From: an uncultured Nitrospiraceae bacterium | GTDB taxonomy: Bacteria; Nitrospirota; Thermodesulfovibrionia; Thermodesulfovibrionales; UBA6898 | Length of the DNA stretch: 64,000 nt | NCBI GenBank assembly: GCA_963811165.1 | Contig: CAWEQH010000004.1 | Coordinates: forward strand, 815,070-879,069 | Reading direction: 5' to 3' | The notes under the pieces: model-generated | Databases searched by the model: none | What the model was told of the DNA's origin: nothing | What the model saw: only the letters and a program-made list of their open reading frames with translations | Shown: positions 14,223-44,293 of the stretch, piece after piece | Layout: the number at the start of each line of letters is the position of its first letter | Position numbering within the stretch: the first letter of the stretch is position 1 | Translations under genes and position numbers: made by a program

Positions 14223-14258
14223 CTTTCCTCATAATGATTCATTGACATAAGAGAATTA

Positions 14259-15032: not shown

Positions 15033-15080
15033 TAAAGCACCTCTGCTAAGTGGCGATGTTTTAGTGTAAATGAGAAACAT

Positions 15081-24165: not shown

Positions 24166-25725
24166 ATGTCGATAATTACTTCCGTAATAAGATATACGCA
24201 GGTTGTCCCACGTTATCTTTTCGTTGGCCTGCTCGCGTTTGCCGTCATAACGCTGTCTATTTCTTCTCCGTACGGCGCCTATGGCGCTCAGGCAACATTG
24301 ACTTGGAACGCTCCAGCCACTAACACTGATGGGACCCCTCTGACGGACCTCTCAGGCTACAAGATTTACTATGGGACAGCCTCGGGTAATTATTCTCAGA
24401 CTATTGATGTGGGAGGCATAACGAGTTCAACTGTTTCCAATTTGACCGACGGAACTACTTATTATTTTGCAATGACTGCATATGATACATCGGGAAACGA
24501 AAGCGCATATTCCAACGAAGTAAGTAAAACAACACAAACTGTCCAGCAATATTCTCTGGCGATAACGAAGAGCGGGACCGGCTCAGGCACGGTAACAAGT
24601 TCTGCGGGGGGAATAAACTGCGGTACTGCCTGCACGGCGACGTACAGTCCCGGTTCAGTAGTAACGCTGACGGCCGCGCCTGCAGGCGGGTCGACGTTTA
24701 CGGGCTGGTCTGGAGGCGGTTGTGCAGGGACTGGAACTTGCTCATTGTCGATGAATGGCAATATAGCGGTAACAGCCACCTTTGGGAGTAACACTTACTC
24801 CATCACCTCAACGGCAGGGGCAGGAGGAACAATATCTCCCTCCGGGACTGTGACCGTGAATGCTGGAACAAGCAAGACATTTACGATTACATCGAATGCA
24901 GGCTATCATGTATCAGACGTAAAGGTTGATGGTGCATCAGTTGGTGCTGTCACGACATATACCCTCAACAATGTAACGGCAAACCATACAATAGCATCGA
25001 CCTTTGCGGTCACTACCTATATAGTCACTCCTTCAGCAGGAGCACATGGCAGTATCAGTCCATCGACCGCGAGGACAGTAAATTACAACGGAACTGCATC
25101 ATTCACAGTGACGCCAAATACTGGATATAATATCGTCTCTGTGACAGGCTGTGGTGGAATGCTATCCGGCAGCACATACACCACCGGCCCCATAACGGCG
25201 AATTGTACGGTAACAGCCACCTTTGGGATTAACACTTACTCCATCACCTCAACGGCAGGGGCAGGAGGAACAATATCTCCCTCCGGGACTGTGACCGTGA
25301 ATTCTGGAACAAGCAAGACATTTACGATTGCTCCCTCTGCCGGTTACTCCATCGGAGCTGTGAAGGTTGATGGTGCATCAGTTGGTGCTGTTGCGACGTA
25401 TACCTTCAGCAATATAAGTTCCGGTCATACCATCTCAGCGACATTCAATCCGGCACAAGTAACATGCGGGAGCCAGCCAGTTAAAGACGGAAATGCATAT
25501 TATCCTTCTGTCCAGACGGCTTACAATGTTGCGCAAAATGGGGCCGACCTGCAGATTCTCGCGACGAGTTTAAGTGGAACTCCGAATCTCACTCGCAATA
25601 TTCAGCTTAGCCTGCAGGGAGGGTATGACTGCGGATTTAACAGCAGTTCTTTATATTCGACTATCTCGGGGGCGCTGGTTATAAGTGCGGGGAGCGTCAC
25701 AATTGAGAATATTATTATCATCTGA
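24166..25725 (+). CDS. Secreted/surface protein: Fn3 + divergent InlB B-repeat-like Ig modules + C-terminal GGYDCGF domain
   Basis: ATG 24166 with GAGG RBS gives a signal peptide; LSGYKIYYG...YYFAMTAYD.SGNES Fn3; GTGSGTVTS..GINCG/FTGWSGG and AGAGGTISPSG repeats. Confidence 0.8.
   Translation: MSIITSVIRYTQVVPRYLFVGLLAFAVITLSISSPYGAYGAQATLTWNAPATNTDGTPLTDLSGYKIYYGTASGNYSQTIDVGGITSSTVSNLTDGTTYYFAMTAYDTSGNESAYSNEVSKTTQTVQQYSLAITKSGTGSGTVTSSAGGINCGTACTATYSPGSVVTLTAAPAGGSTFTGWSGGGCAGTGTCSLSMNGNIAVTATFGSNTYSITSTAGAGGTISPSGTVTVNAGTSKTFTITSNAGYHVSDVKVDGASVGAVTTYTLNNVTANHTIASTFAVTTYIVTPSAGAHGSISPSTARTVNYNGTASFTVTPNTGYNIVSVTGCGGMLSGSTYTTGPITANCTVTATFGINTYSITSTAGAGGTISPSGTVTVNSGTSKTFTIAPSAGYSIGAVKVDGASVGAVATYTFSNISSGHTISATFNPAQVTCGSQPVKDGNAYYPSVQTAYNVAQNGADLQILATSLSGTPNLTRNIQLSLQGGYDCGFNSSSLYSTISGALVISAGSVTIENIIII
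24304..25329 (+). repeat. About 1.03-kb near-identical direct repeat, copy 1 (copy 2 at 26424-27449)
   Basis: Constant 2120-nt offset; only scattered substitutions apart from a divergent patch near 24889-24955. Confidence 0.95.
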
Positions 25726-25888: not shown

Positions 25889-25993
25889 TGTTTCCGAAAA
25901 GGTAAACCCCGGATAACCGGGGGGCACAAAGCCACGGGTCCTTTCCGAGGTCAGCATCAGATGGGAAAGGATGGCCGGGTTGCCGAAGAAGCA
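25889..25993 (+). ncRNA. c-di-GMP-I riboswitch aptamer #2 (paralog of #1, AUAA loop)
   Basis: UGUUUCCGAAAAGGUAAACCCCGG-AUAA-CCGGGGGGCACAAAGCC...GGUUGCCGAAGAAGCA. Confidence 0.85.
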
Positions 25994-26132: not shown

Positions 26133-26224
26133 CACGAAAAAGGCAAACCATCCGAAAGGATGGGACGCAAAGTCACTGGCCTAAGTTCGGACTGTTCCGG
26201 ATATGGCAGCAGGGCTGCCGGGTG
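26133..26224 (+). ncRNA. c-di-GMP-I riboswitch aptamer #3 (canonical Vc2-like)
   Basis: GGCAAACCAUCC-GAAA-GGAUGGGACGCAAAG, 11-nt receptor CCUAAG...UAUGG, GGGCUGCCG. Confidence 0.95.
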
Positions 26225-26285: not shown

Positions 26286-29204
26286 ATGTCAGCATCAAAG
26301 GATCGTCGGAAACATTTGAGCCCACAGTCACGTATTTCTCTGGCTGGTATCTTTTCATTTTTAGTTTTTATCGCACTCTTTCTTTATCCCAACAGTGCAT
26401 TTCCGGGACTGGCTACGCTTACCTGGAACGCTCCAGCCACTAACACTGATGGGACCCCTCTGACGGACCTCTCAGGCTACAAGATTTACTATGGGACAGC
26501 CTCGGGTAATTATTCTCAGACTATTGATGTGGGAGGTATAACGAGTTCAACTGTTTCCAATTTGACCGACGGAACTACTTATTATTTTGCAGTGACTGCA
26601 TATGATACATCGGGAAACGAAAGCGCATATTCCAACGAAGTAAGTAAAACAACACAAGCTGTCCAGCAATATTCTCTGGCGATAACGAAGAGCGGGACCG
26701 GCTCAGGCACGGTAACAAGTTCTGCGGGGGGAATAAACTGCGGTACTGCCTGCACGGCGACGTACAGTCCCGGTTCAGTAGTAACGCTGACGGCCGCGCC
26801 TGCAGGCGGGTCGACGTTTACGGGCTGGTCTGGAGGCGGTTGTGCAGGGACTGGAACTTGCTCATTGTCGATGAATGGCAATATAGCGGTAACAGCCACC
26901 TTTGGGATTAACACTTACTCCATCACCTCAACGGCAGGGGCAGGAGGAACAATATCTCCCTCCGGGACTGTGACCGTGAATTCTGGAACAAGCAAGACAT
27001 TTACGATTGCTCCCTCTGCCGGTTACTCCATCGGAGATGTGAAGGTTGATGGAACTTCAGTGGGCGCTGTTGCGACATATACCCTCAGCAATGTAACGGC
27101 AAACCACGTGATAGCGGCGACCTTTGTGGTCAATACTTATATAGTTACTCCTTCAGCAGGGGCAAATGGCAGTGTCAGTCCATCGACCGCGATGACGGTA
27201 AATTACAACGGAACTGCATCATTCACAGTGACGCCAAATACTGGATATAATATCGTCTCTGTGACAGGCTGTGGTGGAATGCTATCCGGCAGCACATACA
27301 CCACCGGCCTCATAACGGCGAATTGTACGGTAACAGCCACCTTTGGGATTAACACTTACTCCATCACCGCAACGGCAGGGGCAGGAGGAACAATATCTCC
27401 CTCCGGGACCGTGACCGTGAATTCTGGAACAAGCAAGACATTTACGATTACCCCGAATACCGGCTACTCGATATCTGAGGTGATCGTGGATAGTTTGTCG
27501 GCAGGCGCGGTTACATCCTATTCATTCACCAATGTAACCGGGAACCACAGTTTATCAGTATCGTTTGCTCCTTTGGATTTTGATGACGATGGTATTTCAG
27601 ATATAGAAGAGTGGGGACCACAGGGAAATGACCCGAACTATGACGGCAATAATGATGGGGTTCCTGACTACCTGCAAAACAGTGTAGCGTCGCTCCACAC
27701 GGCGGGCAGCAATGACTACATAACTCTCTTTTCGGCAGATGGATATGCACTTAAGGATGTCATGGCAGAGCCGGTACCTGAGGGAACACCTGTTGGTGCG
27801 GAGCTCCCGTATCAGTTCATTAGTTTTACTGTGGATGAAGTCGCAGCCGGGGCAAGCACAACTGTAGTCGTCAAACTCCCTGATGGTGTTGTGGTCAATG
27901 ATTACTATAAGTATGGGCCGACACCCGACAATCCTGCATTACACTGGTATAGCTTTATGTTCGACGGACAGACTGGTGCCGAAATCTCAGGGAATATTAT
28001 CACCCTTCACTTTGTAGACGGACTAAGGGGAGACGATGATCTTATTGCGAATGGACAGATAGTCGACCAGGGAGGTCCCGCAGAGACGCCCGTTGTCGGA
28101 GCAACGCCATCCTCCATCGATTTTGGCACAACAGCAGTGAACACTACTTCGGTGACGCAAAGTGTGAGTATATCAAACAACGGCCTTGCCCCGCTCATCG
28201 TAAGTGCCGTGATGATCACCGGCTCTGATGCAGGGGACTTCGTGGTTCTTGGGGAGACCTGTTCGTCACAGACTACGGCCTCCGCAGGAACATGCAATGT
28301 TAGCGTAGCTTTCGCTCCGCATGCGGCCGGGAATAAGAACGCATCTCTGACAATTTCCTCGGACGACCCCCGCACGCCGATTCTTGTCATTCCAGTTAGC
28401 GGAACGGGAACCATACCTCAGTTTACTCTCTCCGTAACCAAAACGGGCAATGGAACGGTTTCAAGCAGCACGACAGGTATCATGTGCGGAAGTGCCTGCT
28501 CAACCCTCCTAAATGAAGGGACGGTCGCAATCTTAACTGCAACTCCTGGGGCGGACTCGATATTCATCGGTTGGTCCGGAGGTGGTTGTGCGGGGACTGG
28601 CATTTGCTCATTGTCAATGAATGGCGCTGTAAGTGTAACGGCCACCTTTGCGGTCAAAACGTACACAATCGCGGCAACGGCAGGTACAGGAGGGACAATA
28701 TCTCCTTCCGGTGCCGTAACCGCGAATTATGGAACAAGCAAGACATTTGCGATTACTCCATCTGCCGGTTACTCCATCGGAGATGTGAAGGTTGATGGAA
28801 CTTCAGTGGGCGCTGTTGCGACGTATACTTTCAGTAATATCACTGTCAGCCACGCGATCTCTGCTGGCTTTGTGAGCGGGAAAATACCCGCCATCTCCGT
28901 ATCTCCTGCATCTTACGTCTTCAAGACAACAAAAGTCGGTTATTCGTCGTCCAAGATATTCAAAATCACAAACATAGGAAAGGCTAATCTTTCGATACTG
29001 AAAGTCGAGATTATCGGAACCGATGCGAACGCGTTCGGTACATCCTTTGCCGGAACAAAGACGCTAAGTCCATCACGGTACTTCTACCAGACAATTAAAT
29101 TCAGACCGACATCTAAAGGGGTAAAAAATGCTGTGTTGAGGGTAACCTCGAATGACCCTAAGACCCCAGTCATTGCTGTTCCACTGAGTGGCTCAGGCAT
29201 ATAG
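26286..29204 (+). CDS. Large secreted/surface protein: Fn3 + InlB-B-like repeats + choice-of-anchor U-like + ASH/choice-of-anchor D-like domains
   Basis: Signal peptide; Ca-loop-like DFDDDGISD and DGNNDGVPD; YYKYGPTPDN...DGLRGDDD...IVDQGGP; PSSIDFG...SNNGLAPL and terminal SNDP...LSGSG Ig domains. Confidence 0.82.
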   Translation: MSASKDRRKHLSPQSRISLAGIFSFLVFIALFLYPNSAFPGLATLTWNAPATNTDGTPLTDLSGYKIYYGTASGNYSQTIDVGGITSSTVSNLTDGTTYYFAVTAYDTSGNESAYSNEVSKTTQAVQQYSLAITKSGTGSGTVTSSAGGINCGTACTATYSPGSVVTLTAAPAGGSTFTGWSGGGCAGTGTCSLSMNGNIAVTATFGINTYSITSTAGAGGTISPSGTVTVNSGTSKTFTIAPSAGYSIGDVKVDGTSVGAVATYTLSNVTANHVIAATFVVNTYIVTPSAGANGSVSPSTAMTVNYNGTASFTVTPNTGYNIVSVTGCGGMLSGSTYTTGLITANCTVTATFGINTYSITATAGAGGTISPSGTVTVNSGTSKTFTITPNTGYSISEVIVDSLSAGAVTSYSFTNVTGNHSLSVSFAPLDFDDDGISDIEEWGPQGNDPNYDGNNDGVPDYLQNSVASLHTAGSNDYITLFSADGYALKDVMAEPVPEGTPVGAELPYQFISFTVDEVAAGASTTVVVKLPDGVVVNDYYKYGPTPDNPALHWYSFMFDGQTGAEISGNIITLHFVDGLRGDDDLIANGQIVDQGGPAETPVVGATPSSIDFGTTAVNTTSVTQSVSISNNGLAPLIVSAVMITGSDAGDFVVLGETCSSQTTASAGTCNVSVAFAPHAAGNKNASLTISSDDPRTPILVIPVSGTGTIPQFTLSVTKTGNGTVSSSTTGIMCGSACSTLLNEGTVAILTATPGADSIFIGWSGGGCAGTGICSLSMNGAVSVTATFAVKTYTIAATAGTGGTISPSGAVTANYGTSKTFAITPSAGYSIGDVKVDGTSVGAVATYTFSNITVSHAISAGFVSGKIPAISVSPASYVFKTTKVGYSSSKIFKITNIGKANLSILKVEIIGTDANAFGTSFAGTKTLSPSRYFYQTIKFRPTSKGVKNAVLRVTSNDPKTPVIAVPLSGSGI
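26424..27449 (+). repeat. About 1.03-kb near-identical direct repeat, copy 2
   Basis: Matches 24304-25329 at offset 2120. Confidence 0.95.
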
Positions 29205-30061: not shown

Positions 30062-31336
30062 TCAGAACTGGTAAGTGAGGCTGACTCCTATCATATGTAA
30101 GTCTGTCCTGTATGTTCCATTTGCGGAAGTGGTAGGGTTCAAGGCACCGTCAAAGGGATTGTCGTCAATGGCATTATTCTTGGATCTGTCTTTCACCTTC
30201 TGATATGCATAAGAAATCCCCAAGAGAAATTTGTTGAAACGGATGTCTGTCCCCATGCAGTAAACCTGAGATTTGCTCGAAGGTACGATGGGGTCGAATG
30301 TCTCATCCGGGACGGGATTACCCTCGTAGATGTAGCCTGCCATGAAGGCCACAGTGTTATTTACCTGATATCGAGCGCCCATATTAAGGGAGTAAATATC
30401 CTTCCACTTCTTGGGATACGTTATTTCCTGAAATCCGGCAATGGGCAAGTCCGTATTTATGGTGAGCTTGTCATATGAAGACCATCCTTCCCACCTGCCG
30501 CCCACTTCGATAGTCAGCGGTGCAAGACCTTTGTACGCTATACCGAAGTTCGCCGTTGCAGGAAGACTCAGGGTTGTCCGTGCAGCGGTATTTGGGAACA
30601 TTGATGTCAGTGTTTCCGGAAGCGGGACGGGGAAGCTGTGCGAGATGTTTCCGTCTATATCTGTCTTGATCCTGCTCCTGAATGCGGCCCCTATCGAGAT
30701 GTCCTTGGTGACGTCTATGAGCAGCCCGGTATTAAAGCCAAGAGCGAAGTCATCTCCCTTGAAGGTCTGCTTCACATCGGGGATGCCGAGGGAACCCAGG
30801 TTGAGCATCTTGTTGAGCTCTGCATCGAGGAAGAGAAATGAAACTCCCGCAGCAAGAGAAATATTCGGAGTAAGCCGGTATGAGACCACAGGGTTCAGGG
30901 TGTAAGTAGTCAGAACGGACTTGGTGGCTATATACCTTCCTTCCCAGTCATCAGACCACTTTGTCGCCAGACCGAAGTTGCTGAAGGCGCCGAAACCGAC
31001 AGATAACTCCCGGGTCATTTTGTAGGTCATATAAAGCGTCGAGGGGAAGAACACGTCGTTCGCAGTCTCAAAACTCTTGCCCGAAAAAGAGCTCTGGAAC
31101 TTGTTATTAGGGATAAGCAGCGTTGTTCCGACCTCCAACTGCATTCCGGGGAGGTCATTTATGAGTGCGGGGTTGAAGAATACTGAAGAAGGGTCGTTTG
31201 TATGTGCTATCACCGCATTCCCCTGTCCGAGAGGGGTTGCACCTTGGGTATTTACTGAAAAGCCGGCCCCATAGGCGGCCTCTGCAACAAGCATGAGGAC
31301 AACTGTCGATAGGAGAATTTGTCGAAGTGGTCTCAT
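30062..31336 (-). CDS. fadL: OmpP1/FadL/TodX family outer-membrane hydrophobic-compound channel
   Basis: Signal peptide then AGF..., GQGNA.IA...S.FFNPA hatch motif, C-terminal YQF; GGAGGAGG RBS before ATG 31336. Confidence 0.88.
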   Translation of the reverse strand: MRPLRQILLSTVVLMLVAEAAYGAGFSVNTQGATPLGQGNAVIAHTNDPSSVFFNPALINDLPGMQLEVGTTLLIPNNKFQSSFSGKSFETANDVFFPSTLYMTYKMTRELSVGFGAFSNFGLATKWSDDWEGRYIATKSVLTTYTLNPVVSYRLTPNISLAAGVSFLFLDAELNKMLNLGSLGIPDVKQTFKGDDFALGFNTGLLIDVTKDISIGAAFRSRIKTDIDGNISHSFPVPLPETLTSMFPNTAARTTLSLPATANFGIAYKGLAPLTIEVGGRWEGWSSYDKLTINTDLPIAGFQEITYPKKWKDIYSLNMGARYQVNNTVAFMAGYIYEGNPVPDETFDPIVPSSKSQVYCMGTDIRFNKFLLGISYAYQKVKDRSKNNAIDDNPFDGALNPTTSANGTYRTDLHMIGVSLTYQF

Positions 31337-31461
31337 CTTACCTCCTCCCTTAGCTTTACTCATCTGTTTTAAGCATTAGTTACCTTTTTGTCAAGGTAAA
31401 AGTTATAATCAAATCATTGTGCTCGAAATAATACCCACGAGAGGGCAGCCTTCCTGGAACA

Positions 31462-32301
31462 ATGAAGGAATTAAAGAAACGTCGAAATAAGAACCCTGTG
31501 GCCAAGACAAATTACCTCATGGAGAACGAACGTGAGGCGATAAGGCTGGACGCAAAGACCGATCTTGAACGCGTAAGGGAGCAAGCGCTATGGGCCGGAG
31601 TGGAGCCGGGGATGCGGATCGCTGACATCGGCTGCGGCATTGGGAAGACCACGTTTATGTTGAACGAACTTGTTCAGCCGGGCGGAAAAACAGTGGGCGT
31701 TGACTTTTCGGATTCGAGGATAGGCCTTGCGAGGGAAATGTATCCCTCCCCGACGATATCATATGAGGTAAGAGATGTCCGCGGAGACCTGAGGACCCTT
31801 GGGAAGTTCGATTTCATCTGGGTCAGGTTTTTTCTTGAATACTTTCGAGGAGAAAGTTTCGACATAGTAAAAAATCTTACAGGCATCCTGAAGAAAGGCG
31901 GTATACTCTGCCTGATAGACCTTGACTGCAACTGCATGAATTTTCACGGGGCGTCTCCTAAGCTCGAATTGACCCTGGCGCGAGTCATGGAAGCCCTTCA
32001 GGAGCGCGGGAATTTTGATCCTTTTATCGGAAGAAAGCTGTACAGCTATCTTTACGACCTGGGGTACGGGAATATTCGGGTAGATGTCTCGTCTCACCAT
32101 GTCACCTACGGAGAGTTAAGTGATGCAGATGCACTGAACTGGCTTACCAAGGTTGAGACAATCGCCAGTAAGGGCTATGTGGATCTTTCGGAGTTTGGCG
32201 GTGTCAGCGGCTTTATCAAAGAGTTCCGGAAATTTCTCGATGACCCGAGGAGGTTTATTTACTCACCCCTAGTTATGTGCGGGGGGGTAAAAAAGATGTG
32301 A
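31462..32301 (+). CDS. Class I SAM-dependent methyltransferase
   Basis: ADIGCGIG motif I, GVDFS, FDFIWVRF, LKKGG; start may be GTG 31498. Confidence 0.88.
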   Translation: MKELKKRRNKNPVAKTNYLMENEREAIRLDAKTDLERVREQALWAGVEPGMRIADIGCGIGKTTFMLNELVQPGGKTVGVDFSDSRIGLAREMYPSPTISYEVRDVRGDLRTLGKFDFIWVRFFLEYFRGESFDIVKNLTGILKKGGILCLIDLDCNCMNFHGASPKLELTLARVMEALQERGNFDPFIGRKLYSYLYDLGYGNIRVDVSSHHVTYGELSDADALNWLTKVETIASKGYVDLSEFGGVSGFIKEFRKFLDDPRRFIYSPLVMCGGVKKM

Positions 32302-34245
32302 AGGGATAGGTATAGGTGTTTGTGAGCCGGAATCCAAGAGGTTGCCGATATTTTTGTTGCAGTACCTTATAAACGCGTCGATCACTTCAGGATCCAGATG
32401 CGTCCCCCTTATGTCCAGGAGGATCTTGAATGCAACGTCGAGGGGCATAGCTTCCCTGTAATGGCGCTTGGACGTTATCGCCTCGAAGTAGTCGGCAACG
32501 GCTATAATCCTTGAGCCCAACGGGATGGCGTCTTCCCGGAGTCCTCGCGGATAACCTGTGCCGTCCCATTTTTCGTGATGGCATCCGACGATAATCGGGA
32601 CCTGCTTGTAAATCCCTTCGAAGTTGATCTTCTCAAGTATCTGCTGAGTCTTTATCGCGTGGGTTTTTATCTCCTCAAACTCCATTTTGTCGAGCGGCCC
32701 CTGTTTCTTGAGAACCGAATCCCTGATGCCTATCTTGCCGTAGTCATGGAGCAGGGCTGCGACGCGGATCATCTCCGTAAATTCCTTGTTCATGTCGAGC
32801 TCTTGACAGATTCCTATAGCGAATTTGGTAACCCGTTCCGAGTGGCCGGCGGTCATGAAGTCCCTTGCGTCGATAGTTGCCGCAAGGGTTTGGATGATAG
32901 ACCTGAATTGCTGCTCCTTGTTCTCAAAGAGCATGGTGGTATGCATGCTGACGGCTATCTCCGGCATGATGGTCATGAGAAGGGTGAGGTCGCTTTGGAG
33001 CAATGGCCTCTTGGAACGTATGTTGTCCACTGCGATAATGCCGAGGGACTGCTTCTCGTAGACGACAGGACAGCAGATGAAAGACTTTGCTCCCATTTTT
33101 TTTGCGAACTCGATGCTGTATGGTGAGAGATCGTCCGTGATTGACTCCACATCGTCGATGAGGAGCGGTTTCTGGTCTTTGAAGGAGACGACAAATGCCC
33201 CTTTGGAACTTGTCTTGTTTAGGTGAAACTGGGTCTTCTTCAAGAAGGAATACTGCTCTGGGGTATAACCAAACCCGGAGTGGAAGACCAGTGTGGTCCT
33301 CTCCTTGTTCGGAAGCAAGATAAGCCCCCGGTCATAGTCGAGCCGGTTCTGGAACGCCTGAATGACTTCGCGGAAGATATCGTCGAGATCGCTCTTTTTG
33401 TTGAAGGCGAGTCCGAGTTCGTATATGAGAAGACTGTCGTTATGTCTGGAGTTGAGCTGGTCCAGGAGTTTATCGGACGAGTCCTGAAGGTTCGACAGGG
33501 CCGCATTCAGTTCGTTGTTTTCGAGACGCTTCACGTATATGGTGATGAGGAAAAGCGCCAGTATAAAAAAAGGAAGGAGGATTGCTATAGCAATGTCCCG
33601 GTGGCCGCTAAACGTGACAAGACCGAAGAGAATGAGGAGAAAGATCGTAAAATAGGTCCTGACGTTCTTCCACAGTGCGGAGTAAGACTCTTGCCACGTT
33701 ACAATGTATTTGCATGATGAGCCCCCCCTGAACATGCATTCAGGATGTTCAATGGCAGGGAAACGGTAGTTGAATGCTTTTGCGAGGGCCTCAAGGTGGC
33801 CCACCCTGTTTTCGCACTGAAAAGCCTTCTCTTTGACGTCCGTATGAGGGGTGACTGTTATTTCGACCCTATGCTTTCCTATCCTCTTTGCGACGTAGTC
33901 GGAAGATTTCGTGAAGAAGGATGAGAATTTACCGATCAGTTCATAAGCTCTGCCCGGTCCCACGAGCCCAAGTATATACTGTCTTATGAAGCCAAGAGAA
34001 TCCGCCGATGCAGCAAATCTTCCGGCCTCCCGTGCAATGTCCTTGTTGCCGGTCTTCTTCAAGATCTCTTCATAGAACTTGTCCACCTCTTCCTGCGTAA
34101 ACCAGTGCCCCTGGTCTGCAACCTGGTAAGGCTTTATGCCCGAATTGGAAAGGATTTCGTTTGCGTCGATGAGAGGGTACCTCTGCCCTAAGTACTTGAT
34201 GAATGTGTCTATGATGCGGCTGCTGTATAAAGGCCTTTCAGTCAT
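32269..34245 (-). CDS. HD-GYP phosphodiesterase with N-terminal V4R/H-NOX-like domain, 2 TM and GAF
   Basis: GHSERV, LHDYGK, HHEKWDGTGYP; CENR.G...EHPECMFRGGSSC V4R-type Cys pattern; AAGGA RBS before ATG 34245. Confidence 0.88.
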   Translation of the reverse strand: MTERPLYSSRIIDTFIKYLGQRYPLIDANEILSNSGIKPYQVADQGHWFTQEEVDKFYEEILKKTGNKDIAREAGRFAASADSLGFIRQYILGLVGPGRAYELIGKFSSFFTKSSDYVAKRIGKHRVEITVTPHTDVKEKAFQCENRVGHLEALAKAFNYRFPAIEHPECMFRGGSSCKYIVTWQESYSALWKNVRTYFTIFLLILFGLVTFSGHRDIAIAILLPFFILALFLITIYVKRLENNELNAALSNLQDSSDKLLDQLNSRHNDSLLIYELGLAFNKKSDLDDIFREVIQAFQNRLDYDRGLILLPNKERTTLVFHSGFGYTPEQYSFLKKTQFHLNKTSSKGAFVVSFKDQKPLLIDDVESITDDLSPYSIEFAKKMGAKSFICCPVVYEKQSLGIIAVDNIRSKRPLLQSDLTLLMTIMPEIAVSMHTTMLFENKEQQFRSIIQTLAATIDARDFMTAGHSERVTKFAIGICQELDMNKEFTEMIRVAALLHDYGKIGIRDSVLKKQGPLDKMEFEEIKTHAIKTQQILEKINFEGIYKQVPIIVGCHHEKWDGTGYPRGLREDAIPLGSRIIAVADYFEAITSKRHYREAMPLDVAFKILLDIRGTHLDPEVIDAFIRYCNKNIGNLLDSGSQTPIPIPSHLFYPPAHN

Positions 34246-34340
34246 GGCTGTCCTTTCCAGTATGCCCATGCCTCCATGAACCAAGAGCGCCGGAGAATGT
34301 TATGTCTGAGAGTATTTGCCTCATGGTCACCGTCTCCCCA

Positions 34341-36383
34341 TTATTCCCCTCTTACGAGGTGCGAAACGAAGTCTAGATAGTGGTCTCCTGTCTCATGCAC
34401 ATTAAATGACCAGAGCCTGTAAATCTTGTCGTTTCGCAATGCAACCTTTTCGGCATATGACGTGGGGTAAACGAGGATGGGGATCTCATGCTCTGCGTAA
34501 TTCTGAACAACTCTATTGCAGGCTGACTGAAAATAGTCGAGGGGGAGATTGTTACCGTCAAGAATGAAGACCGTGACACAGTTTGTGAGGTTCGACATGT
34601 TCAGGCCGAAATCAGATACGTTCGCTATGAAGACCGCCTTAAGGCTCTTACCCTTCTTCAGTGAGTATAAGTGGCGGTCTCTCTTCATCCCATTTTTTTC
34701 GTATATGCCTTTTATCGGCATATCTAAAGGGGGGGTAGGTTCGAGTTCAAAGGCCGTAGTCATAAGTCCTCCCGATACGTAAGAGTAATAATCCTCCAGC
34801 TCGAACAAGTCAGACGCCGTGGAAGGCTCCAGCGTCATGGAAGCCGGCAGGGAAGGAAGATGCTGGTTTTTCCTAAAGAGGAGGTGCGCAAAGTCGTCAA
34901 GTGAGCAGAGTTTTGGGTTTGCGAGGCGCCTTGCGTAGCCGCCGAAGACGCGGTCCGGGAAATGATTACCAGGCCGGAAATAACAGATGACATATTGCAT
35001 ATGGGACGAATACATGTTATGGACGTCGTTGATGTAACGGCCGACCTGATTGAGAACGACGAGTCCTGCTTTTCTTATGCCGAAGGATGCGTGATGGTGG
35101 ATGAGCCATGTGTTCTCGAAGAAACGTATCATTGCGATGTGACCTTGTATCTGTCCCTTGTCCCGGTACATAAAATGGCGGGCTATGTCGGGGCTGTCGA
35201 GATAGAGTTTCCTGTAAGTCTCCTTTAACGTATCCATGTTCTGATGTATGGAACAGTATTTTTTTGGATAGATGAAACCGGTCTTGAAAAAAAACTTCCA
35301 GAGTTCGTCGACGTCTACCCGGGTGCACACATAGGAGTTCATGTTCGTGACTTGATGCAGGATGCTGGCGACGAGGATCTGGCTTGCGGGGTCCATGTCG
35401 AGAATAGCAATACCGCAATATATGACTGTATTGGAGGAAGCCGGAGAGGATGCATCAGAGACAACGCGTTGGGTTATTACCTGGGCCCTGCAGCTTACCT
35501 TGACCCCGTATGCAAACTCAACGTCCAAATGCGGCAGTATCATGCCGGGAACGAGGGTAGCGGACTCGTAGCACTCAGTGACGGAAAACCCCGCCCCGGA
35601 CATCTCGTCTATCTTAAGCGATACGGTTTTTCCGCTGAACGGGTGCACGAATATGATGTTGGGAGAGGGGTGGAGTCGATGTCTGGGGCTCCTGTGTGTC
35701 TTCGGCTTAAATCGATAAAGATGGTGATTGACAGGCTCAAGGACAAAGGTCCTTTCTTTGATCCCTTCGTTGTGCCGTATTACACGGCACTCTCCTGAGT
35801 ACAGGAGTTCCCCCCCTTTTTTGATGAAGACCGTGATCGCAATTTCTGGCGCGATATATTTGAATGACTGGAAGTTTCCCAAAGACATGCCGGCTGAAAA
35901 AGAGAAGGCGCTGAAGTCATTAAGTCTTCCTTTAAAAAAGAGGCCGTTTTGCACCATTTCGACGTCGATCCCTTGGCAGGGATAACGCTCCGCCTTTCTC
36001 ACCGTGACATCCGCTCCAACGACCTTGCTCATGTCGAAACTTATACTTTTTTCATCTATGTCAACGAGATCGGGCTTCAACGAGAATATGCTCTTGCCTG
36101 CGGCTACAAGAACGCCCTGGAACACATAAGAACTGCTCCTTTCCTTCAGCATCCCCTGGTCCTTCCAGGAGAGATGCAGATAGTCCTCATGACAGGGGAA
36201 TGGGAATGCTTCGACGGTCACGGTAGTATTATATTGCACATGCTTGAATACGGCGTAAACGGCTCTACCCTGGAAATGAAGATAGTTGATCGCGTTGACG
36301 ATGCGGGCCTTGCTCAATTCGGCTTTTCTGGCAACGTGGCAAGACGCGTCCATTTCTGGTTTGGTGTGCAGTCCTTCTTCCAC
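34341..36383 (-). CDS. Multi-PilZ-domain protein with C-terminal GNAT-like region
   Basis: RKAER...DFSAFS and HRSPR...EMSGAG PilZ-like motifs; C-terminal GQIQGHIAMIRFFENTWLIHH strand pattern suggests an acyltransferase fold. Confidence 0.65.
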   Translation of the reverse strand: MEEGLHTKPEMDASCHVARKAELSKARIVNAINYLHFQGRAVYAVFKHVQYNTTVTVEAFPFPCHEDYLHLSWKDQGMLKERSSSYVFQGVLVAAGKSIFSLKPDLVDIDEKSISFDMSKVVGADVTVRKAERYPCQGIDVEMVQNGLFFKGRLNDFSAFSFSAGMSLGNFQSFKYIAPEIAITVFIKKGGELLYSGECRVIRHNEGIKERTFVLEPVNHHLYRFKPKTHRSPRHRLHPSPNIIFVHPFSGKTVSLKIDEMSGAGFSVTECYESATLVPGMILPHLDVEFAYGVKVSCRAQVITQRVVSDASSPASSNTVIYCGIAILDMDPASQILVASILHQVTNMNSYVCTRVDVDELWKFFFKTGFIYPKKYCSIHQNMDTLKETYRKLYLDSPDIARHFMYRDKGQIQGHIAMIRFFENTWLIHHHASFGIRKAGLVVLNQVGRYINDVHNMYSSHMQYVICYFRPGNHFPDRVFGGYARRLANPKLCSLDDFAHLLFRKNQHLPSLPASMTLEPSTASDLFELEDYYSYVSGGLMTTAFELEPTPPLDMPIKGIYEKNGMKRDRHLYSLKKGKSLKAVFIANVSDFGLNMSNLTNCVTVFILDGNNLPLDYFQSACNRVVQNYAEHEIPILVYPTSYAEKVALRNDKIYRLWSFNVHETGDHYLDFVSHLVRGE

Positions 36384-36646: not shown

Positions 36647-39136
36647 CTATCTCCGTAACAAAACCAGCTTCTCAAACTCATCACTGGGGAGCGGCTTACC
36701 CAATAGGTATCCCTGCATCTCATCACATCCACTGGAATGCAGAAACGTTAGCTGATCATCAGTTTCAACTCCCTCCGCAACCACTTCCAAATTCATTGTG
36801 TGTGCCACTGCAATCATAGCATTCACTATGGCTTGGTGGGTAAGGTCGGCTTTGAGTTCTTTGATAAAAGACTTGTCAATCTTAAGTTTCTGAACATGTA
36901 ATCTCTTGAGAGAACTTAAGCATGAATACCCTAAGCCGAAGTTATCTACGGAAATTCCAATACCGATATCAGCCAGTCTGGTGAGGTTGGCAATGGTAAA
37001 TTCAATATTTTGCATAACAGCGCTTTCGCTGATATCGAGTTCGAGCAGTTCAGGGGCCAAACCTGTCTCTTCCAATATCCGAGAAATCATTTTCACGAGA
37101 TTCGACTTCTGGAACTGTCGCGTGGAGAGGTTTATCGTCATACGAATAGGCTTGTATCCTGATTCCTGCCACGCCCTGGCTTGGACACAGGCAGTGCGCA
37201 GCACCCACTCATCGATATAAGTAATTACCCCTATCTTTTCGGCTACTGGAAGGAATTTTGACGGACTGAGCAATCCCAGTTCCGGATGTCGCCAGCGCAC
37301 GAGTGCCTCCGCACAGAGTATCTGGCGGGAACCTACGTTTAACTGCGGTTGATAATGAAGAACCAGTTCTCCGCACTCTATCATCCGGCGCAAATCGTTT
37401 TCTAGTAGCATCCTTTCAAGGGTTCTGACATTTACGGCCGAACTGTGGAATTGATAGTTATTCCTGCCCTGTCCCTTTGCATGATACATTGCAATATCGG
37501 CATTTTTGAGCAGTGTTTCGGCGTTTTCGCCGTCATTCGGACAGATACTGATGCCAATACTGGCAGTGACGTAGAGCTCCTGGTTTTCAATCTTGAAGGG
37601 CCCTTTAAAAATTGACATGATTTTTTTTGCAATCGGGACCGCATCATCAGGATAAGAAATATCCGCCAGCAGTATATTGAATTCATCGCCTCCGATACGG
37701 GCAATGGTATCGGTTTCACGCATACATGTTTTCAGTCTGCCTGCAACTTCCTTGAGCAATTTATCGCCTATCGAATGTCCGAGTGTGTCATTAATACTCT
37801 TAAAATTGTCGAGGTCCAAAAACATTACCGCAAGCATCTTGCGATTTCGGCGTGTCTCCGCCAGTTCAAGAGTAAGATGGTCCATAAAGAGCATCCTGTT
37901 TGGCAAATCGGTCAGGGGATCGTGTAATGCCTGAAATCTCATTGCCTCTTCTACTCTTTTCCGCTCCGTAATTTCCTGCAGCACGACATTAATGCCGAGC
38001 AGTCCCTGAGCCTCGTCTCTGACGGGGTAAAAATATGCCAGCCAATCACGCGTGATCCCCGGCTGAGCGTGCGTTGTGCCATGGATCTCCAGTCCTTCCA
38101 CCGGCTCTCCAGTTTCTATTACACTCCGTAAGGACGGCTCGCAGAGGTCTGCGAATGAGGGTGCCGCTTCGCGTACTGAGCGGCCAAGGTGCTCGTCGAC
38201 CGACAAACCACTCATTTCTGCGAATTTCTCGTTGACGCTTACGTATCGGAGGGCGGTATCCATAAAGCACAGACCGGTCGGCGCTGTCGTATAAATGACT
38301 TGCAGCTCTGCCAGACGGGTGCGAGAGAGTTCCTCACTTTTGCGCAATGCTCCCTCTGCTCGTTTACGCTCGGTAATATCGCGAAAGTAGGTTTCCAGAC
38401 GGTCATGACTGGGAAAGGCGTGTGTCTCAAACCATCTATCGGCCGCACTGAAGTAAGCTTCCGTGTGTACGGGTCTCCTCGCCGAAGCTGCCATTTGATA
38501 CTGCTGATAAAACTCGGTACCAACGACCTCGGGGCATTCCTCCCATAAGACCTTTCCGATAAGTTCTTTTGCAGGCCTGCTGAATAACTTCTCGGCCACT
38601 TGGTTGATTTCCAAAAAGCGCCACTGGTAGTCCAGCGCAAAATATGCATCTGTAATGCCGTTTAGTATGTCGCTTAGCCTTTCACTGGTGCTCTGTAAAG
38701 CTCCCTCTGTTCGTTTGAACTCGGCCATATCGTGGGCGATCAGCGAAACTCCGATGATTTCACCGACAGCGTCTTTAATGGGAGACGCGCTGAGAGAAAT
38801 CCTGATTGGCCTGCCGTCTCTTCTCATACCTACTGTTTCATAATGCGTTACACTCTCTCCCCTCGCAGCTTTCGAAAGTATAGGGGGTATCTCATCGCGA
38901 TGGGCAGGAGAGACAAGGAGGGAGATAGGGCGACTGAGTATCTCTTCTGCCGAATAACCATAGATTTTTTCGGCGCCCGGGCTCCAGGTCGTAAGGGTGC
39001 CATCTGCTCTCGCACTGATTATCGCATTATCCAGCGATGTCACAACTGCCTCTAACCAGGCATGTGCTTTCTCCGCCCGCTCGCACCTGAATTTTATTGC
39101 TTCAAGATTCTTGAGTTGTTGTAGCATCTCTTTCAT
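36647..39136 (-). CDS. PAS-PAS-PAS-GGDEF-EAL protein
   Basis: Three PAS/PAC repeats (DITERKR linkers), RETD I-site, GGDEF, EAL, EGVE, QGY; loop 6 reads DNFGLG. Confidence 0.92.
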   Translation of the reverse strand: MKEMLQQLKNLEAIKFRCERAEKAHAWLEAVVTSLDNAIISARADGTLTTWSPGAEKIYGYSAEEILSRPISLLVSPAHRDEIPPILSKAARGESVTHYETVGMRRDGRPIRISLSASPIKDAVGEIIGVSLIAHDMAEFKRTEGALQSTSERLSDILNGITDAYFALDYQWRFLEINQVAEKLFSRPAKELIGKVLWEECPEVVGTEFYQQYQMAASARRPVHTEAYFSAADRWFETHAFPSHDRLETYFRDITERKRAEGALRKSEELSRTRLAELQVIYTTAPTGLCFMDTALRYVSVNEKFAEMSGLSVDEHLGRSVREAAPSFADLCEPSLRSVIETGEPVEGLEIHGTTHAQPGITRDWLAYFYPVRDEAQGLLGINVVLQEITERKRVEEAMRFQALHDPLTDLPNRMLFMDHLTLELAETRRNRKMLAVMFLDLDNFKSINDTLGHSIGDKLLKEVAGRLKTCMRETDTIARIGGDEFNILLADISYPDDAVPIAKKIMSIFKGPFKIENQELYVTASIGISICPNDGENAETLLKNADIAMYHAKGQGRNNYQFHSSAVNVRTLERMLLENDLRRMIECGELVLHYQPQLNVGSRQILCAEALVRWRHPELGLLSPSKFLPVAEKIGVITYIDEWVLRTACVQARAWQESGYKPIRMTINLSTRQFQKSNLVKMISRILEETGLAPELLELDISESAVMQNIEFTIANLTRLADIGIGISVDNFGLGYSCLSSLKRLHVQKLKIDKSFIKELKADLTHQAIVNAMIAVAHTMNLEVVAEGVETDDQLTFLHSSGCDEMQGYLLGKPLPSDEFEKLVLLRR

Positions 39137-39564: not shown

Positions 39565-41111
39565 TTACACTCCTCCACCCAGCACCTTATAAAGTGTCAC
39601 CAAATTGATCAGCCGGGAAAGGCGAACCGTAATCAGCCCCTGCTGCGCACTGTAAAGAGAGCGCTGCGAGTCCAGGACATTCAGGTAGCTTGCTATGCCA
39701 TTTTGGTAGCGGGCCTGCGATAAACGGTAGCTTACGGCGGTGGCATCCGTCAGAGATTGCTGAGCCTCCAGTTGATCGCCAAGGGTGCCACGTTGCGCAA
39801 GGGCATCGGCAACTTCCCTGAAGGCGCTCTGGATCGCCTTCTCATACTGGGCAAGGAAGATTTCACGGTCGACTTCCGTCACTTTCAGATTGGCCCGGTT
39901 TCGCCCTGCATCGAAGATCGGCAGGGTAATTTGCGGTGCAAAGCTCCATGTGCCAGCTCCTCCCTTAAAGAGTCCGGACAGCTGATCGCTTGAGAGACCG
40001 ATGCTCGTCGTGAGGGTGATGCTCGGGAAGAACGCCGCACGTGCCGCGCCGATATTGGCGTTGGCAGCTTTAAGAAGGTGCTCTGACTGCATGATGTCAG
40101 GGCGGCGTTGCAGCACGTCCGACGGCAGACCCGCGCTGAGTTCTTTCAATGCGGTAATCGGACTGAGCCCAGACGGCAGGAGATCAGCTGGCACCGGCGA
40201 GCCGATCACCAGCGCCAGCGCGTTTTCGTCCTGGGCCACCTGGCTTGTGAAGCGGGCAATATCCACCCTGGCCGAATCGACACTGGTCTGGGCCTGACGG
40301 AGATCAAGCTCCGAGGAGGCCCCGGCTTCGAATCGGCGCTTGATAAGGTTGTATGAAGACTTCTGGCTCTCGAACGTGTCTTGAGCAATTTTCAGGTGCT
40401 CTTTATCGGCGGCAAGGGTCAGGTAGTTGCTTGCGACCTCGGCCACCAAGCTTATCTGCATACTGCGGCGTGCCTCCTCAGTCGCGAAAAACTCCTCCAG
40501 CGCCTGGTCTTTAAGGCTCCGCACGCGACCGAAAAGATCGAGCTCGTAGGCGCTGAACCCGAGGCCGACACTGTATTGATGCACTCTCATGGACTGTCCT
40601 GTAGCCGAGAGAGGCTCGCGGGCACCCGCTGTTCGATTCCGCTGCCGGCTGCGTTCACTGTTGGAAAGAGATCGGCGCGCTGGATTTGATACAGCGCCTG
40701 CGACCTTTCGATATTGAGTGCGGCTATTCGCAGGTCGCGGTTATTTTCAAGTGCAAGGGAGATCAGCTTTTGCAGCTGTTTGATCGATAAAGAACTCCTG
40801 CCATTTGATGTCGGCAGCAGCTCTGATCGCCAGGCTTTGCTGCGTCGCCTTGTAAGCGGGCCGCTCGGCCATTCGGACGGAACAGGCGCTGCCGGCCGCG
40901 TATATTTGGGGGCCATGCTCGCGCAGCTGGAGAGGACAAGCAAGGCAATCGCAGCGGCTGCACCACGGAGATGGTTTGTCATTCCGGCTTGCCTGTGCCC
41001 GATGTTTGGGTATCCGGAATCTTTATTCGGAAGAATTCCCGACGCGCTACGCCTGCGGGAAGGACAGCTAATAAAGTATTTCATTGCACTGTTACTCGAT
41101 CGTCTTTTCAT
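39565..41111 (-). pseudogene. OprM/NodT family RND outer-membrane lipoprotein, split by about 3 frameshifts (possibly sequencing errors)
   Basis: LSSC lipobox, [29 protein letters not shown] in different frames; shifts near 40860, 40780, 40600. Confidence 0.8.
40977..41066. repeat. 90-bp palindromic REP/RPE-like element, in frame in the OMF N-terminus
   Basis: Termini TGTCATTCC.../...GGAAGGACA; internal hairpins ATTCCGG..CCGGAAT and TTCCCG..CGGGAA. Confidence 0.7.
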
Positions 41112-41112
41112 A

Positions 41113-44100
41113 TTACTGTTCCTCCGCAGAATTGCCAACAGCAGACGCTGCGTGCGGTTTATATTTTCCCCGGCCAAACAGCCGTGACACCATCACAAAG
41201 AAAAATGGAATAAAGATCAGGTCGATAAAGGTGGCCGACAAGCAGCCCGCCGGTAACGGCGGTGCCGATGGCGTTCTGGGCTCCGGCCCCCGCGCCCCTG
41301 GTAAGGGCCAGCGGCAATGTGCCGAAAAAGAAAGCCAGTGATGTCATGATGACCGGCCGCAGCCGGATCTTCACCGCCGTCAGGGTGGCCTCGACCAGTT
41401 CATGCCCCTGATGCATCTGTGCCTTGATGAATTGAATGATCAGTATGGCGTTCTTGGTGGAAAGTCCAATGGTGGTGAGCAAGCCGATCTGGAGATAGAT
41501 ATCGTCGGGCAACACCCGAAGCGTCACCGCCGTCACCGCGCCCACCAGACCCAGCGGCAGCATCAGCAGGTTGACAAAGGGGATGGTCCAGCTCTCATAC
41601 AGTGCAGCCACGGCGAGAAACACCACCAACAGCGAAATGGCGTAGAGGGCCGGGGCCTGGGCTCCGGCATGTTTCTCCTCGTAGGAGAGGCCGGTCCACT
41701 CGTAGCCGATCCCCAGCCGGCAGCTGGGCCGCCATCTTCTCCATCTCGGCCATCGCCTCGCCGGTGCTGACCCCCGGCGCCGCCTGTCCCTGGATTTCCA
41801 CGGAAGGAATGCCGTTGTAACGTTCGAGGCGGGGTGAAGCGTACTGCCAGCGGGCGGTGGAAAAGGCCGAAAACGGCACCATATCACCGCTGCTGTTGCG
41901 GACGTACCAGTTGTTGATATCCTCCGGCACCATCCGGTATCTGGCATCGGCCTGGAGATAGACCTTTTTGACCCGGCCGTTCTGGATGAAGTCGTTGACG
42001 TAGGAGCCACCCCAGGCGGTGGCCAGCACGCTGTTGACATCAGCCACGGATACCCCCATGGCGCCGGCCCTCACGTCGTCTATGTCGAGCTTGAACTGGG
42101 GGGTGTCGTCCTGGCCGTTGGGTCGCACGGCAATCAGTTTTGGGTTTTTCATGGCCATGCCCAGGAGCTGGTTGCGCGCCTCCATCAACTTTGTCGTGGC
42201 CCAGACCGTTGCGGTCCTGCAGTTCCATGTCGAAGCCGTTGGCAAAACCCAGCTCGATCACCGCCGGCGGTGCGAAGGCGAAGGCCATCCCGTCCCGGAA
42301 CTTCGAGAAGGCCTGCATGGCCCGGGCGGCAATGGCCGGGGCTTTCAAGTCCGGCGTCTTTGCGCAGCTTCCAGTCCTTGAATTTCACAAAGGCCAGACC
42401 CATGTTCTGGCCGCGGCCGGCAAAGCTGAACCCGGTCACGGTGATTACCCCCTCCACCGTTTTCTTCTCATCTTCCATAAAATGTTTTTCCAGCTGCCTG
42501 ATGACCTTGATAGTCCTTTCCGTCGTGGCCCCGGGCGGCAGCTGGACCTGGCAGATGATGAACCCCTGGTCCTCATCCGGGAGGAAGGCGGTGGGGAGCC
42601 GCAGGAACAAGAATACCATCGCGCAAACCAGGGCGACGTATACCACCAGAAAGCGCATCGGTCGGCCGAAGGAGCTACCGACAATGCCTTCATACTTGCT
42701 CCTAAAGAAATCGAACAACTTGTTAAACCGTCTGAAGAACCAGGTGAACCAGCCTGACTTACCTGTATGATCGCCCTTTGCCACCGGCTTAAGCAGGGTG
42801 GCGCAGAGGGCCGGAGTCAGGATCATGGCTACCAGCACGGAAAGGATCATGGCGGCGATAATGGTGACCGAGAACTGCCGGTAGATGACCCCGGTGGAAC
42901 CGCTGAAGAAGGCCATTGGCAAAAAGACCGCTGTCAAGACGGTGGCGATGCCCCAGAGGGCGCTGGTAATCTGCCCCATGGACTTGAGGGTGGCGTCATG
43001 GGGCGATAGCCCCTCCTCGGACATGATTCGTTCCACGTTCTCGACGACGACTATGGCATCATCCACCAGGAGACCAATGACAATCACCAGGGCGAACATG
43101 GTCAGAGTGTTGATGGAGAAACCGGTGGCCGACAGAACCCCCATGGTCCCCAGCAAAACCACCGGCACCGCGATGGTGGGAATCAGGGTCGCCCGGAATT
43201 TCTGGAGGAAAAGGAACATGATGATGAAGACCAGGCAGACTGCCTCCACCAGGGTCTGGACCACCTCCTCGATGGAGATCTTTACGAAGGGGGTGGTGTC
43301 GTAAGGGTAGACCACCTCCATGCCGGCGGGGAAGTATTTTCCCAACTCCGCCATCTTGGCCTTGATCCGGTTGCCGGTTTCGAGGGCGTTGGCGCCGGCG
43401 GCCAGCCGGATGGCCATGCCGCCCATCGGTTTGCCCTGGTAGAAGGACTGGATGTCATAGTTCTCGGTGCCGATTTTGGTTTCGGCGACATCCTTGAGCT
43501 TCACCGTCGAACCGTCGGGGTTGGTACGAAGGATGATGTTGTCGAACTGTTCCGGGGTCTGCAGCAGGGTGCGGGCGGTGATGGTGGCGTTTAGTTGCTG
43601 CCCCTGAACGGCCGGGGTGGCGCCGAACTGACCGGCCGAGACCTGGGCGTTCTGGGCCTGGATCGCATTGACCACGTCTGTGGAGGTCAACCGGTAGTTG
43701 TTTAGCTTGGCGGAGTCCAGCCAGATCCGCATGGCGTTCTGGGTGCCGAACAATTGCAGTTCTCCCACCCCTTCCAACCGGCTGATGATGTCCTGAATGT
43801 TGGAGACCATGTAGTCGGTCAGTGCGTTGCGGTCCATGGACCCGTCCTGCGACACCAGGCCGACGATCAGGAGGAAGTTGCGGGTGGATTTGACCACCTG
43901 GATGCCCTGCCGCTGCACCACCTGGGGCAGAAGCGGGATAGCCAGCTGTAGCTTGTTCTGCACCTGGACCTGGGCGATGTTCGGGTCTGTCCCTGCCAGG
44001 AAGGTCAGACTGATGGAAACCGCCCCAGCCGAGTCGCTGGTGGAGGACATGTATATCAGGTTGTCGATGCCGTTGAGCTTTTGCTCAATGACCTGGGTGA

Positions 44101-44281: not shown

Positions 44282-44293
44282 AGCGGATCTCCT

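Follow-up and report, generated by a model that had tools for sequence, protein, structure and literature searches.

A window of 64,000 nucleotides (nt) from an uncultured Nitrospiraceae bacterium (GenBank assembly GCA_963811165.1, contig CAWEQH010000004.1, positions 815,070 to 879,069 of the forward strand) carries four adjacent genes that an initial annotation had proposed as a module for lipid signaling and cyclic di-GMP (c-di-GMP) turnover: a FadL channel, an S-adenosylmethionine (SAM) methyltransferase, a sensor phosphodiesterase, and a 680-amino-acid (aa) protein combining PilZ barrels with GNAT folds. All four open reading frames were confirmed, with the features below, and they form a real, conserved and apparently undescribed synthase-receptor cassette that has a parallel sister form.

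30062..31363, minus strand: FadL/OMPP1/TodX channel gene, probable start ATG at 31336; an optional member
31462..32301, plus strand: class I SAM methyltransferase gene of a cassette-specific family
32269..34284, minus strand: sensor phosphodiesterase gene (H-NOX-fold domain, two membrane helices, coiled coil, GAF, HD-GYP), probable start ATG at 34245
33685..34227, minus strand: predicted haem-less H-NOX-fold domain of the sensor, about residues 20-200 (model with a predicted local distance difference test score, pLDDT, of 87.6)
33523..33663, minus strand: two predicted transmembrane helices of the sensor, about residues 208-254 (hydropathy peaks)
32383..33390, minus strand: GAF (residues 299-446) and HD-GYP (468-634) domains of the sensor (Pfam GAF and HD_5)
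34341..36383, minus strand: gene for the 680-aa protein (PilZN-like barrel, PilZ1, PilZ2, double GNAT)
35349..36320, minus strand: three PilZ-type barrels of the 680-aa protein, residues 22-345 (fold matches to YcgR, MrkH, Alg44 and the PilZ structure 4xrn)
34344..35348, minus strand: double-GNAT acyltransferase-fold region of the 680-aa protein, residues 346-680 (fold matches to double-GNAT enzymes)

The channel and methyltransferase genes diverge across a 98-nt gap, and Pfam confirms both assignments. The methyltransferase is class I, with an uncharacterized protein (3mgg), a phosphoethanolamine N-methyltransferase and a juvenile hormone acid O-methyltransferase as its nearest solved sequences; the channel matches PF03349 (OMPP1/FadL/TodX) over its full length at 213 bits against a cut-off of 29.7 and falls below the cut-off for the E. 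coli FadL equivalog (106 versus 585). A strong Shine-Dalgarno sequence precedes the FadL start at 31336, and the sensor start at 34245 agrees with a 658-aa database copy (P0121). The 33-nt convergent overlap reported between the sensor and methyltransferase genes is present (32269-32301); we rejected a functional role for it, as just 5 of 37 convergent sensor/methyltransferase pairs overlap, and it is incidental. The 680-aa protein, the methyltransferase and the sensor N-terminal domain are each single-copy in the genome, none of the four proteins has an NCBIfam model above cut-off, and the nearest named homologues of the cassette proteins come from Thermodesulfovibrionales. Predicted promoters (8 versus 8.7 in shuffles) and terminators (8 versus 8.0) showed no excess, and no Rfam element was found within the cassette or in seven related loci.

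The arrangement, which we term type A, recurs widely. Of the best 80 among 506 GTDB loci, 62 have the methyltransferase, 52 the sensor, 24 FadL and 11 a B12 radical-SAM gene, and 21 have all four core genes; restricted to the 50 loci that extend 6 kb or more downstream, the numbers are 45, 40, 21, 10 and 19. Nitrospirota, Desulfobacterota and Planctomycetota are represented among these loci, along with one spirochaete bin. Homologues also occur in Ca. Kuenenia stuttgartiensis and Ca. Brocadia, and the gene order (PilZ-GNAT, then sensor, converging on methyltransferase, then FadL) is kept across phyla. Where the sensor is not adjacent, 25 of 28 genomes carry it elsewhere, mostly in a 960-1050-aa form that was a hybrid kinase in the three proteins scanned. 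Among 61 relatives, the GNAT, sensor and methyltransferase genes mark the same seven genomes, are always adjacent there, and were not found in the other 54, which bears out the expectation that the genes co-occur in other genomes. None of seven further congeneric genomes has the cassette; type A is an accessory cassette. A sample of 121 genomes from another phylum, whose center genome was picked because it has the module, yielded full GNAT matches in 12, all with the methyltransferase; one exception (G184) holds a lone broken methyltransferase. We give counts and no P values since related genomes are not independent. Mirror-tree correlations of 0.58-0.82 exceeded permutations and, computed without a species-tree control, carry little weight. 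Type A clustering is far beyond chance. Traces of decay were also seen: in locus L014 (G061:C2:170372-171191) the sensor is broken and an intact copy lies on another contig, and in G013 (L132) a stop codon interrupts the GNAT gene.

Neither Pfam nor NCBIfam assigned a family to the 680-aa protein, and even at E<=0.1 no Pfam family was matched by more than 4 of 75 members. Searches recovered 844 homologues at E<=0.001, and the double-GNAT family comprises 1208 representatives at 50% clustering. A structure model built from 106 sequences (pLDDT 86.8, predicted template modeling score 0.82) contains three beta-barrels followed by two GNAT folds. The GNAT-like C-terminus that the initial annotation had offered as a point on which its reading could fail is thus a GNAT fold, in tandem, and its PilZ assignment holds at the level of fold; its count does not, there being three barrels where two PilZ-like motif pairs had been named, and neither pair is fully canonical. 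Residues 228-344 superpose on the PilZ beta-barrel of 4xrn (Z 12.6, root-mean-square deviation (rmsd) 1.9, 100 aligned residues) and residues 126-219 match 8u0i (Z 9.8, rmsd 2.4). The canonical PilZ motifs for c-di-GMP are RxxxR and D/NxSxxG. PilZ1 keeps the former (R129 in 104 and R133 in 105 of 106 rows) with a degenerate DxSxxG, whose final position is mostly Ser or Ala (Ser in 96 of 106 rows; Gly in 15 of 125 distant rows). PilZ2 keeps the latter (S262 in 91 and G265 in 104 rows), with Glu replacing Asp in this copy and the first Arg of RxxxR mostly replaced by Phe, Tyr, Ile or His. The strong conservation of these split motif residues suggests nucleotide binding, perhaps between domains.

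The fold of residues 345-667 best matches human histidine N-acetyltransferase (9emd; Z 13.6, rmsd 4.3, 10% identity over 259 aligned residues), and lower-ranked double-GNAT matches include Ta0821, glucosamine acetyltransferases, N-myristoyltransferases (NMT) and clavulanate Orf14. Conservation is higher in the N-terminal GNAT (0.71 versus 0.57), where H415, W426, H430, G440 (119 of 125 rows) and N473 (120 of 125) are near-invariant; we take the positions of G440 and N473 to be the expected GNAT motif A and B sites. Pfam families for FeeM and autoinducer synthases were absent among the 75 members, and neither FeeM nor LuxI was among the fold matches listed. Searching solved structures with the 680-aa alignment gave two uninformative matches (E 0.5 and 2.4), ESM Atlas matches were unnamed clusters that included 344-373-aa GNAT-like proteins, and a complex prediction for the 680-aa protein with the methyltransferase returned a score of 0.00, which is no answer and speaks neither way. 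The family also occurs in other architectures: in two Syntrophobacter genomes the PilZ-GNAT protein carries an N-terminal fusion of NERD and a Ser/Thr kinase (L005:8408-12025, L071:8276-12037), and three divergent type A loci (L168, L169, L170) encode a PilZ-GNAT protein of about 950 aa with an additional N-terminal canonical PilZ, together with a methyltransferase, a radical-SAM enzyme and a double-kinase hybrid sensor.

The sensor's GAF domain and two membrane helices agree with the initial annotation. Its N-terminus had been called V4R-type from a Cys pattern, and the pattern is indeed invariant in 52 of 52 sensor rows, whereas the predicted fold is closer to H-NOX than to V4R: the domain matches three H-NOX structures (Z 17.3, 16.5 and 14.9; Foldseek E 2e-8), the best being 4u99 (rmsd 2.8, 178 aligned residues), compared with Z 14.5 for the AraC-type ligand domain of VirS and 8.4 for DmpR-type V4R. 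Pfam V4R itself matched weakly in 9 of 52 sensors. The invariant residues C157, H180, C183 and C191 fit the zinc-site pattern C-x21/22-H/Q/E-x2-C-x7-C as putative zinc ligands, and G88 and G162 fit a hinge pattern. The HxxCx7C segment aligns weakly (E 0.36) to the zinc site of the Shewanella oneidensis H-NOX, with the four residues corresponding to C139, H161, C164 and C172. YxSxR is the H-NOX haem motif. Across the 52 rows, with haem positions mapped through element order and spacing from the zinc Cys, no proximal haem His was conserved in the helix-F region, nor any YxSxR, and we rejected haem or nitric oxide sensing by this domain. The proximal His is described as absolutely conserved in H-NOX proteins (PMC7108781).

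On the output side, the HD-GYP residues are intact (H481, HD513-514, K517, H542, HHE569-571, GYP577-579, D598, RHYR607-610), with the metal and GYP residues kept in 45-47 of 47 rows and RxxR in 42 of 47. According to one study (10.1101/600031), Rxx(R/K) marks c-di-GMP-type HD-GYP enzymes and RxxQ or RxxN those selective for cyclic GMP-AMP (cGAMP). The RHYR motif places the predicted enzyme in the c-di-GMP type; cGAMP selectivity was rejected, as the fourth position is R in 42 rows, H in 3 and a gap in 2, never Q or N. Preceding a two-helix hairpin, the input domain is most likely cytoplasmic, as are the output domains, and a signal would therefore have to cross the inner membrane too. Outputs differ among the 21 sensor homologues scanned (HD-GYP, HD-GYP with PilZ, kinase, or PAS-kinase-receiver) while the input domain stays constant, which we count in favor of the proposed signaling cassette. 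Two distant haem-less H-NOX-like domains are fused to adenylate/guanylate cyclase in a layout like that of soluble guanylate cyclase (L315:8667-10547, L316:8588-10048), and an orphan kinase-form sensor (L314:6540-9224) has an enoyl-CoA hydratase on either side.

In genomes that lack the GNAT and methyltransferase, the sensor profile gave weak matches (E 1e-7 to 1e-13) at 4-7 kb from mid-scoring FadLs, and between sensor and FadL stood an LpxL/lipid A-family acyltransferase and a muconate-lactonizing-type enzyme of the enolase superfamily. This sister cassette, type B, keeps a homologous sensor and a sister FadL and has the LpxL-like acyltransferase and the enolase-superfamily enzyme where type A has the GNAT and methyltransferase. 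The type A and type B sensor profiles align with 97.1% probability in hhalign (E 7e-11); type B sensors have Glu in place of the zinc-site His, and a membrane-like segment is present in 52 of 53 type A sensors and absent from all 41 of type B. In the 121-genome sample, the type B acyltransferase and sensor both pick out an identical set of 13 genomes, five of which had seeded the acyltransferase profile; four new type B genomes proved to carry the acyltransferase and sensor side by side, without FadL. A metagenome search with the acyltransferase alone gave 80 type B loci; where the flank sufficed, 31 of 32 had the sensor upstream, 39 of 41 the enolase and 19 of 30 FadL. Two B12 radical-SAM subfamilies are common to both types at 61% and 54% identity, against a background of 24-36% to unlinked radical-SAM enzymes of their own genome; they resemble lipid-related B12 families weakly, far under cut-offs. 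That one sensor family, sister FadLs and common tailoring enzymes are paired with two unrelated acyltransferase folds favors an acyl-lipid product read by the sensor, as the acyl-signal reading of the initial annotation would have it. In the simplest account, the acyl compounds made by the two types may be chemically related and bound by the sensor.

FadL had been presented as a full module member; it lies outside the core and instead belongs to a subfamily of its own, represented in three phyla. In a 71-member FadL tree, 30 rows linked to a cassette, drawn from these phyla, fall on one side of a branch (Shimodaira-Hasegawa-like approximate likelihood ratio test 98), away from 33 further FadLs found in those lineages; one unlinked row (L193) falls inside this group. 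Type B FadLs are sister to it (97), and the joint branch has support of 94, or 96 with FastTree. The trees are quick and FastTree versions, midpoint-rooted and without an approximately unbiased test; they omit 16 duplicate loci and matches under 300 aa, and two rows labelled type A adjoin partial cassettes (L014, L189). In the 61 relatives, FadL matches above 600 bits adjoin the cassette only (four genomes and a contig-end fragment in a fifth) and all others reach at most 289, part of this gap arising by construction from a profile made from cassette FadLs. FadL is optional yet dedicated to the cassette. A third FadL clade beside the joint branch (L194, L196, L197) lies with a FabF-like ketosynthase, an ICMT-like methyltransferase and a seven-transmembrane histidine kinase, with an NAD epimerase in two of the three loci; these are a candidate for another lipid-signal cassette with a different receptor.

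Together, the anatomy, predicted folds, intact phosphodiesterase motifs, co-occurrence, dedicated FadL subfamily and sister cassette are established. We give about an even chance to the proposal that the cassette both produces and senses a small acylated, lipid-like signal in a c-di-GMP feedback loop. The double-GNAT enzyme, probably c-di-GMP-gated via its PilZ barrels, would acylate a small acceptor and the methyltransferase would finish the acylated product; as a lead guess, an N-acyl amino acid or fatty acyl compound would become a methyl ester or N-methyl form, with extra methylation where a B12 radical-SAM gene is present. The product would pass through the outer membrane by way of FadL. 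Its binding to the predicted haem-less H-NOX-fold domain would modulate the HD-GYP phosphodiesterase to which that domain is attached, and so complete the loop. FadL channels move hydrophobic molecules including acyl-homoserine lactones, indicating exchange with the outside, and FadL orthologues are described as importing such lactones (PMC7728783). We infer every activity in this scheme, the ligand, the c-di-GMP gating, the direction of transport and any density dependence. On present evidence the cassette would work like a lipid quorum or feedback system, and it appears to be a member of no tested family. More tentatively, at somewhat less than even confidence, we propose a widespread, quorum-like lipid-signal family in Desulfobacterota, Nitrospirota and anammox Planctomycetota, with a haem-less H-NOX receptor, radical-SAM tailoring, a dedicated FadL and interchangeable synthases, which would be either a c-di-GMP-gated double GNAT with a methyltransferase or an LpxL-like acyltransferase with an enolase-type enzyme.

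Several observations weigh against a signaling loop. In neither PilZ domain are RxxxR and D/NxSxxG intact together; the match of the GNAT region to 9emd is remote (10% identity, rmsd 4.3), exceeding the next double GNAT by just 1.7 Z units, and a GNAT substrate is unreadable from sequence, according to the PixB study (PMC8316039). FadL was not seen in most loci: it is present in 24 of 80, in 21 of the 50 that extend 6 kb or more downstream, in 3 of 12 phylum-sample genomes and in 7 of 13 type B genomes. One genome (G179) has a type A sensor without the enzymes, another (G153) has sensors with only a contig-end GNAT fragment, and no acyltransferase lies within some 8 kb of six distant sensor homologues, which may be solo receptors or sensors of other cues. 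The zinc-site residues match those of a known redox switch, and all observations also fit intracellular lipid modification with no cell-to-cell role.

The latter possibility, in which FadL imports a fatty acid or lipid, the enzymes form a modified membrane lipid or amino lipid and the sensor monitors substrate or product without cell-to-cell signaling, we consider unlikely, though it is the most probable of the rivals. It accommodates the same co-occurrence data, and it would suit the membrane anchor of the type A sensor, the membership of the type B acyltransferase in the lipid A/lysophospholipid acyltransferase family and the weak likeness of the radical-SAM enzymes to lipid-related B12 families. 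Methyl-branched fatty acids, moreover, are known in these lineages. It is harder to square with the families recurring beside the cassette in the 80 loci, among which there was no acyl-CoA ligase, acyl carrier protein or beta-oxidation gene, with the patchy presence (0 of 7 same-genus genomes), which is unlike a core lipid pathway, and with the triple PilZ and the dedicated phosphodiesterase or kinase, which suggest a behavioral output. Less probable still is a redox or zinc-thiol circuit in which a haem-free H-NOX senses oxidants via its Cys3His site and alters c-di-GMP while a PixB-like PilZ-GNAT protein and the methyltransferase modify proteins. The invariance of the zinc-site residues and hinge glycines in 52 of 52 rows, matching the S. 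oneidensis site, speaks for such a circuit, as do the double-GNAT fold of the protein acyltransferases NMT and VipF, the activation of haem-free Vibrio cholerae H-NOX through oxidation of equivalent cysteines (PMC7108781) and the action of the PixB GNAT on motility (PMC8316039). It leaves unexplained the dedicated FadL clades, the LpxL-like acyltransferase beside a homologous sensor and the common radical-SAM enzymes, and type B sensors have Glu, not His. In DmpR-type small-molecule sensors a comparable zinc site serves a structural purpose, which also counts against a redox role.

The window itself lends some color to c-di-GMP-controlled acylation and methylation of an exopolysaccharide (EPS) or other envelope polymer, as it holds a polysaccharide cluster (47-16247) and riboswitch-led adhesins, and Caulobacter HfsK, a c-di-GMP-binding protein of the N-acetyltransferase family, is implicated in holdfast modification (PMC5362036). 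We nonetheless rate it very unlikely: no glycosyltransferase or adhesin family recurs beside the cassette in the 80 loci, and FadL and type B would be left unexplained. As no such family recurs, a conserved link to the EPS or adhesin genes, next to which the initial annotation had placed its loop, was rejected; the association is local only. Chance clustering of unrelated regulatory genes, finally, would suit the varying neighbors and the optional FadL; it is barely credible, and largely refuted already, given that the genes occur together and side by side in 7 of 61 and 12 of 121 genomes and keep their order across phyla.

Known systems provide partial parallels to the proposed signaling cassette. 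Myxococcus xanthus PixB (MXAN_2604) likewise joins PilZ barrels to a C-terminal GNAT with a proposed c-di-GMP-gated acyl transfer (PMC8316039), but has RxxxR in both PilZ domains, present here in PilZ1 only, whereas the 680-aa protein has three barrels and a double GNAT and stands with a fixed methyltransferase, sensor and FadL; by this architectural comparison it does not share the PixB layout, in which a single GNAT accompanies two RxxxR-bearing PilZ domains. Nas343 and Nas354 (FeeM-PilZ) and the cAMP-activated NasP also fuse a GNAT-fold acyl synthase to a nucleotide-messenger domain, and their products are proposed messengers (PMC4897644). In Nas343 and Nas354, however, a single FeeM-type domain lies N-terminal to one PilZ, unlike the double GNAT here, for which Pfam gives no synthase family; the available text of PMC4897644 describes no cognate receptor for N-acyl amino acid synthases. 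PixB, Nas343/Nas354 and HfsK are precedents for c-di-GMP-linked acyltransferases. HisAT/NAT16 (9emd), the best structural match, transfers acyl groups to a free amino acid, can fit long acyl chains and has its active site in the N-terminal GNAT (PMC12219266), which is also the better conserved half here; it differs in its 10% identity, rmsd of 4.3 and lack of PilZ. The zinc-site H-NOX proteins (S. oneidensis 4u99 and the haem-free V. cholerae protein, PMC7108781) have the same fold, Cys3His pattern, glycine hinge and coupling to kinases or c-di-GMP enzymes, whereas the sensor here has no conserved proximal His or YxSxR, is fused in cis to a membrane hairpin, GAF and HD-GYP, and is linked to acyltransferases.

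Fatty-acid quorum systems share the logic of pairing a lipid-signal synthase with an adjacent receptor whose output is a kinase or c-di-GMP phosphodiesterase. These include Ralstonia PhcB/PhcS, with its methyltransferase-made methyl ester, and RpfF with RpfC/RpfG or RpfR. They use other synthase and receptor folds, and the type A cassette has no RpfF-like or LuxI-like gene. Searches of the main texts of Creative Commons-licensed PMC and bioRxiv papers found no description of a type A or type B cassette, in keeping with the view that the combination is undescribed. The available text of an HD-GYP survey (10.1101/2021.11.05.467447) and a c-di-GMP sensor review (PMC8846402) has neither the term V4R nor such a protein. 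If the signaling reading is true, the cassettes provide candidates for the synthases and receptor with which sulfate reducers, Geobacterales and anammox bacteria communicate chemically, the H-NOX fold gains a gas-independent role as a lipid receptor, and signal synthesis and c-di-GMP are joined in one loop. Under the rival explanations too, an unannotated double-GNAT family and an unannotated sensor domain emerge, in two parallel cassettes open to heterologous expression.

In the window around the cassette, three riboswitch aptamers of the c-di-GMP-I clan lie on the plus strand at 23790-23881, 25892-25988 and 26133-26223, one RF01051 and two tandem RF03167 (c-di-GMP-I-GGC), and downstream of them are paralogous surface proteins with Fn3/InlB repeats (24052-25725 and 26286-29204), a possible local output of c-di-GMP control. 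The polysaccharide biosynthesis cluster at 47-16247, which is not kept beside the cassette in other genomes, encodes a flippase, a Wzy_C/O-antigen ligase, a formyltransferase, several glycosyltransferases and epimerases. Flanking genes encode a GAF-GAF-GGDEF protein (19850-21880, plus strand), also near the cassette in locus L013, and a PAS3-GGDEF-EAL protein (36647-39136, minus strand) that adjoins the cassette only here. Beyond the latter is an RND efflux operon (39565-45514, minus strand; about 59% guanine plus cytosine) whose pump (41159-44281) and outer-membrane factor (39565-41177) are broken across several frames, suggesting frameshifts or assembly errors.

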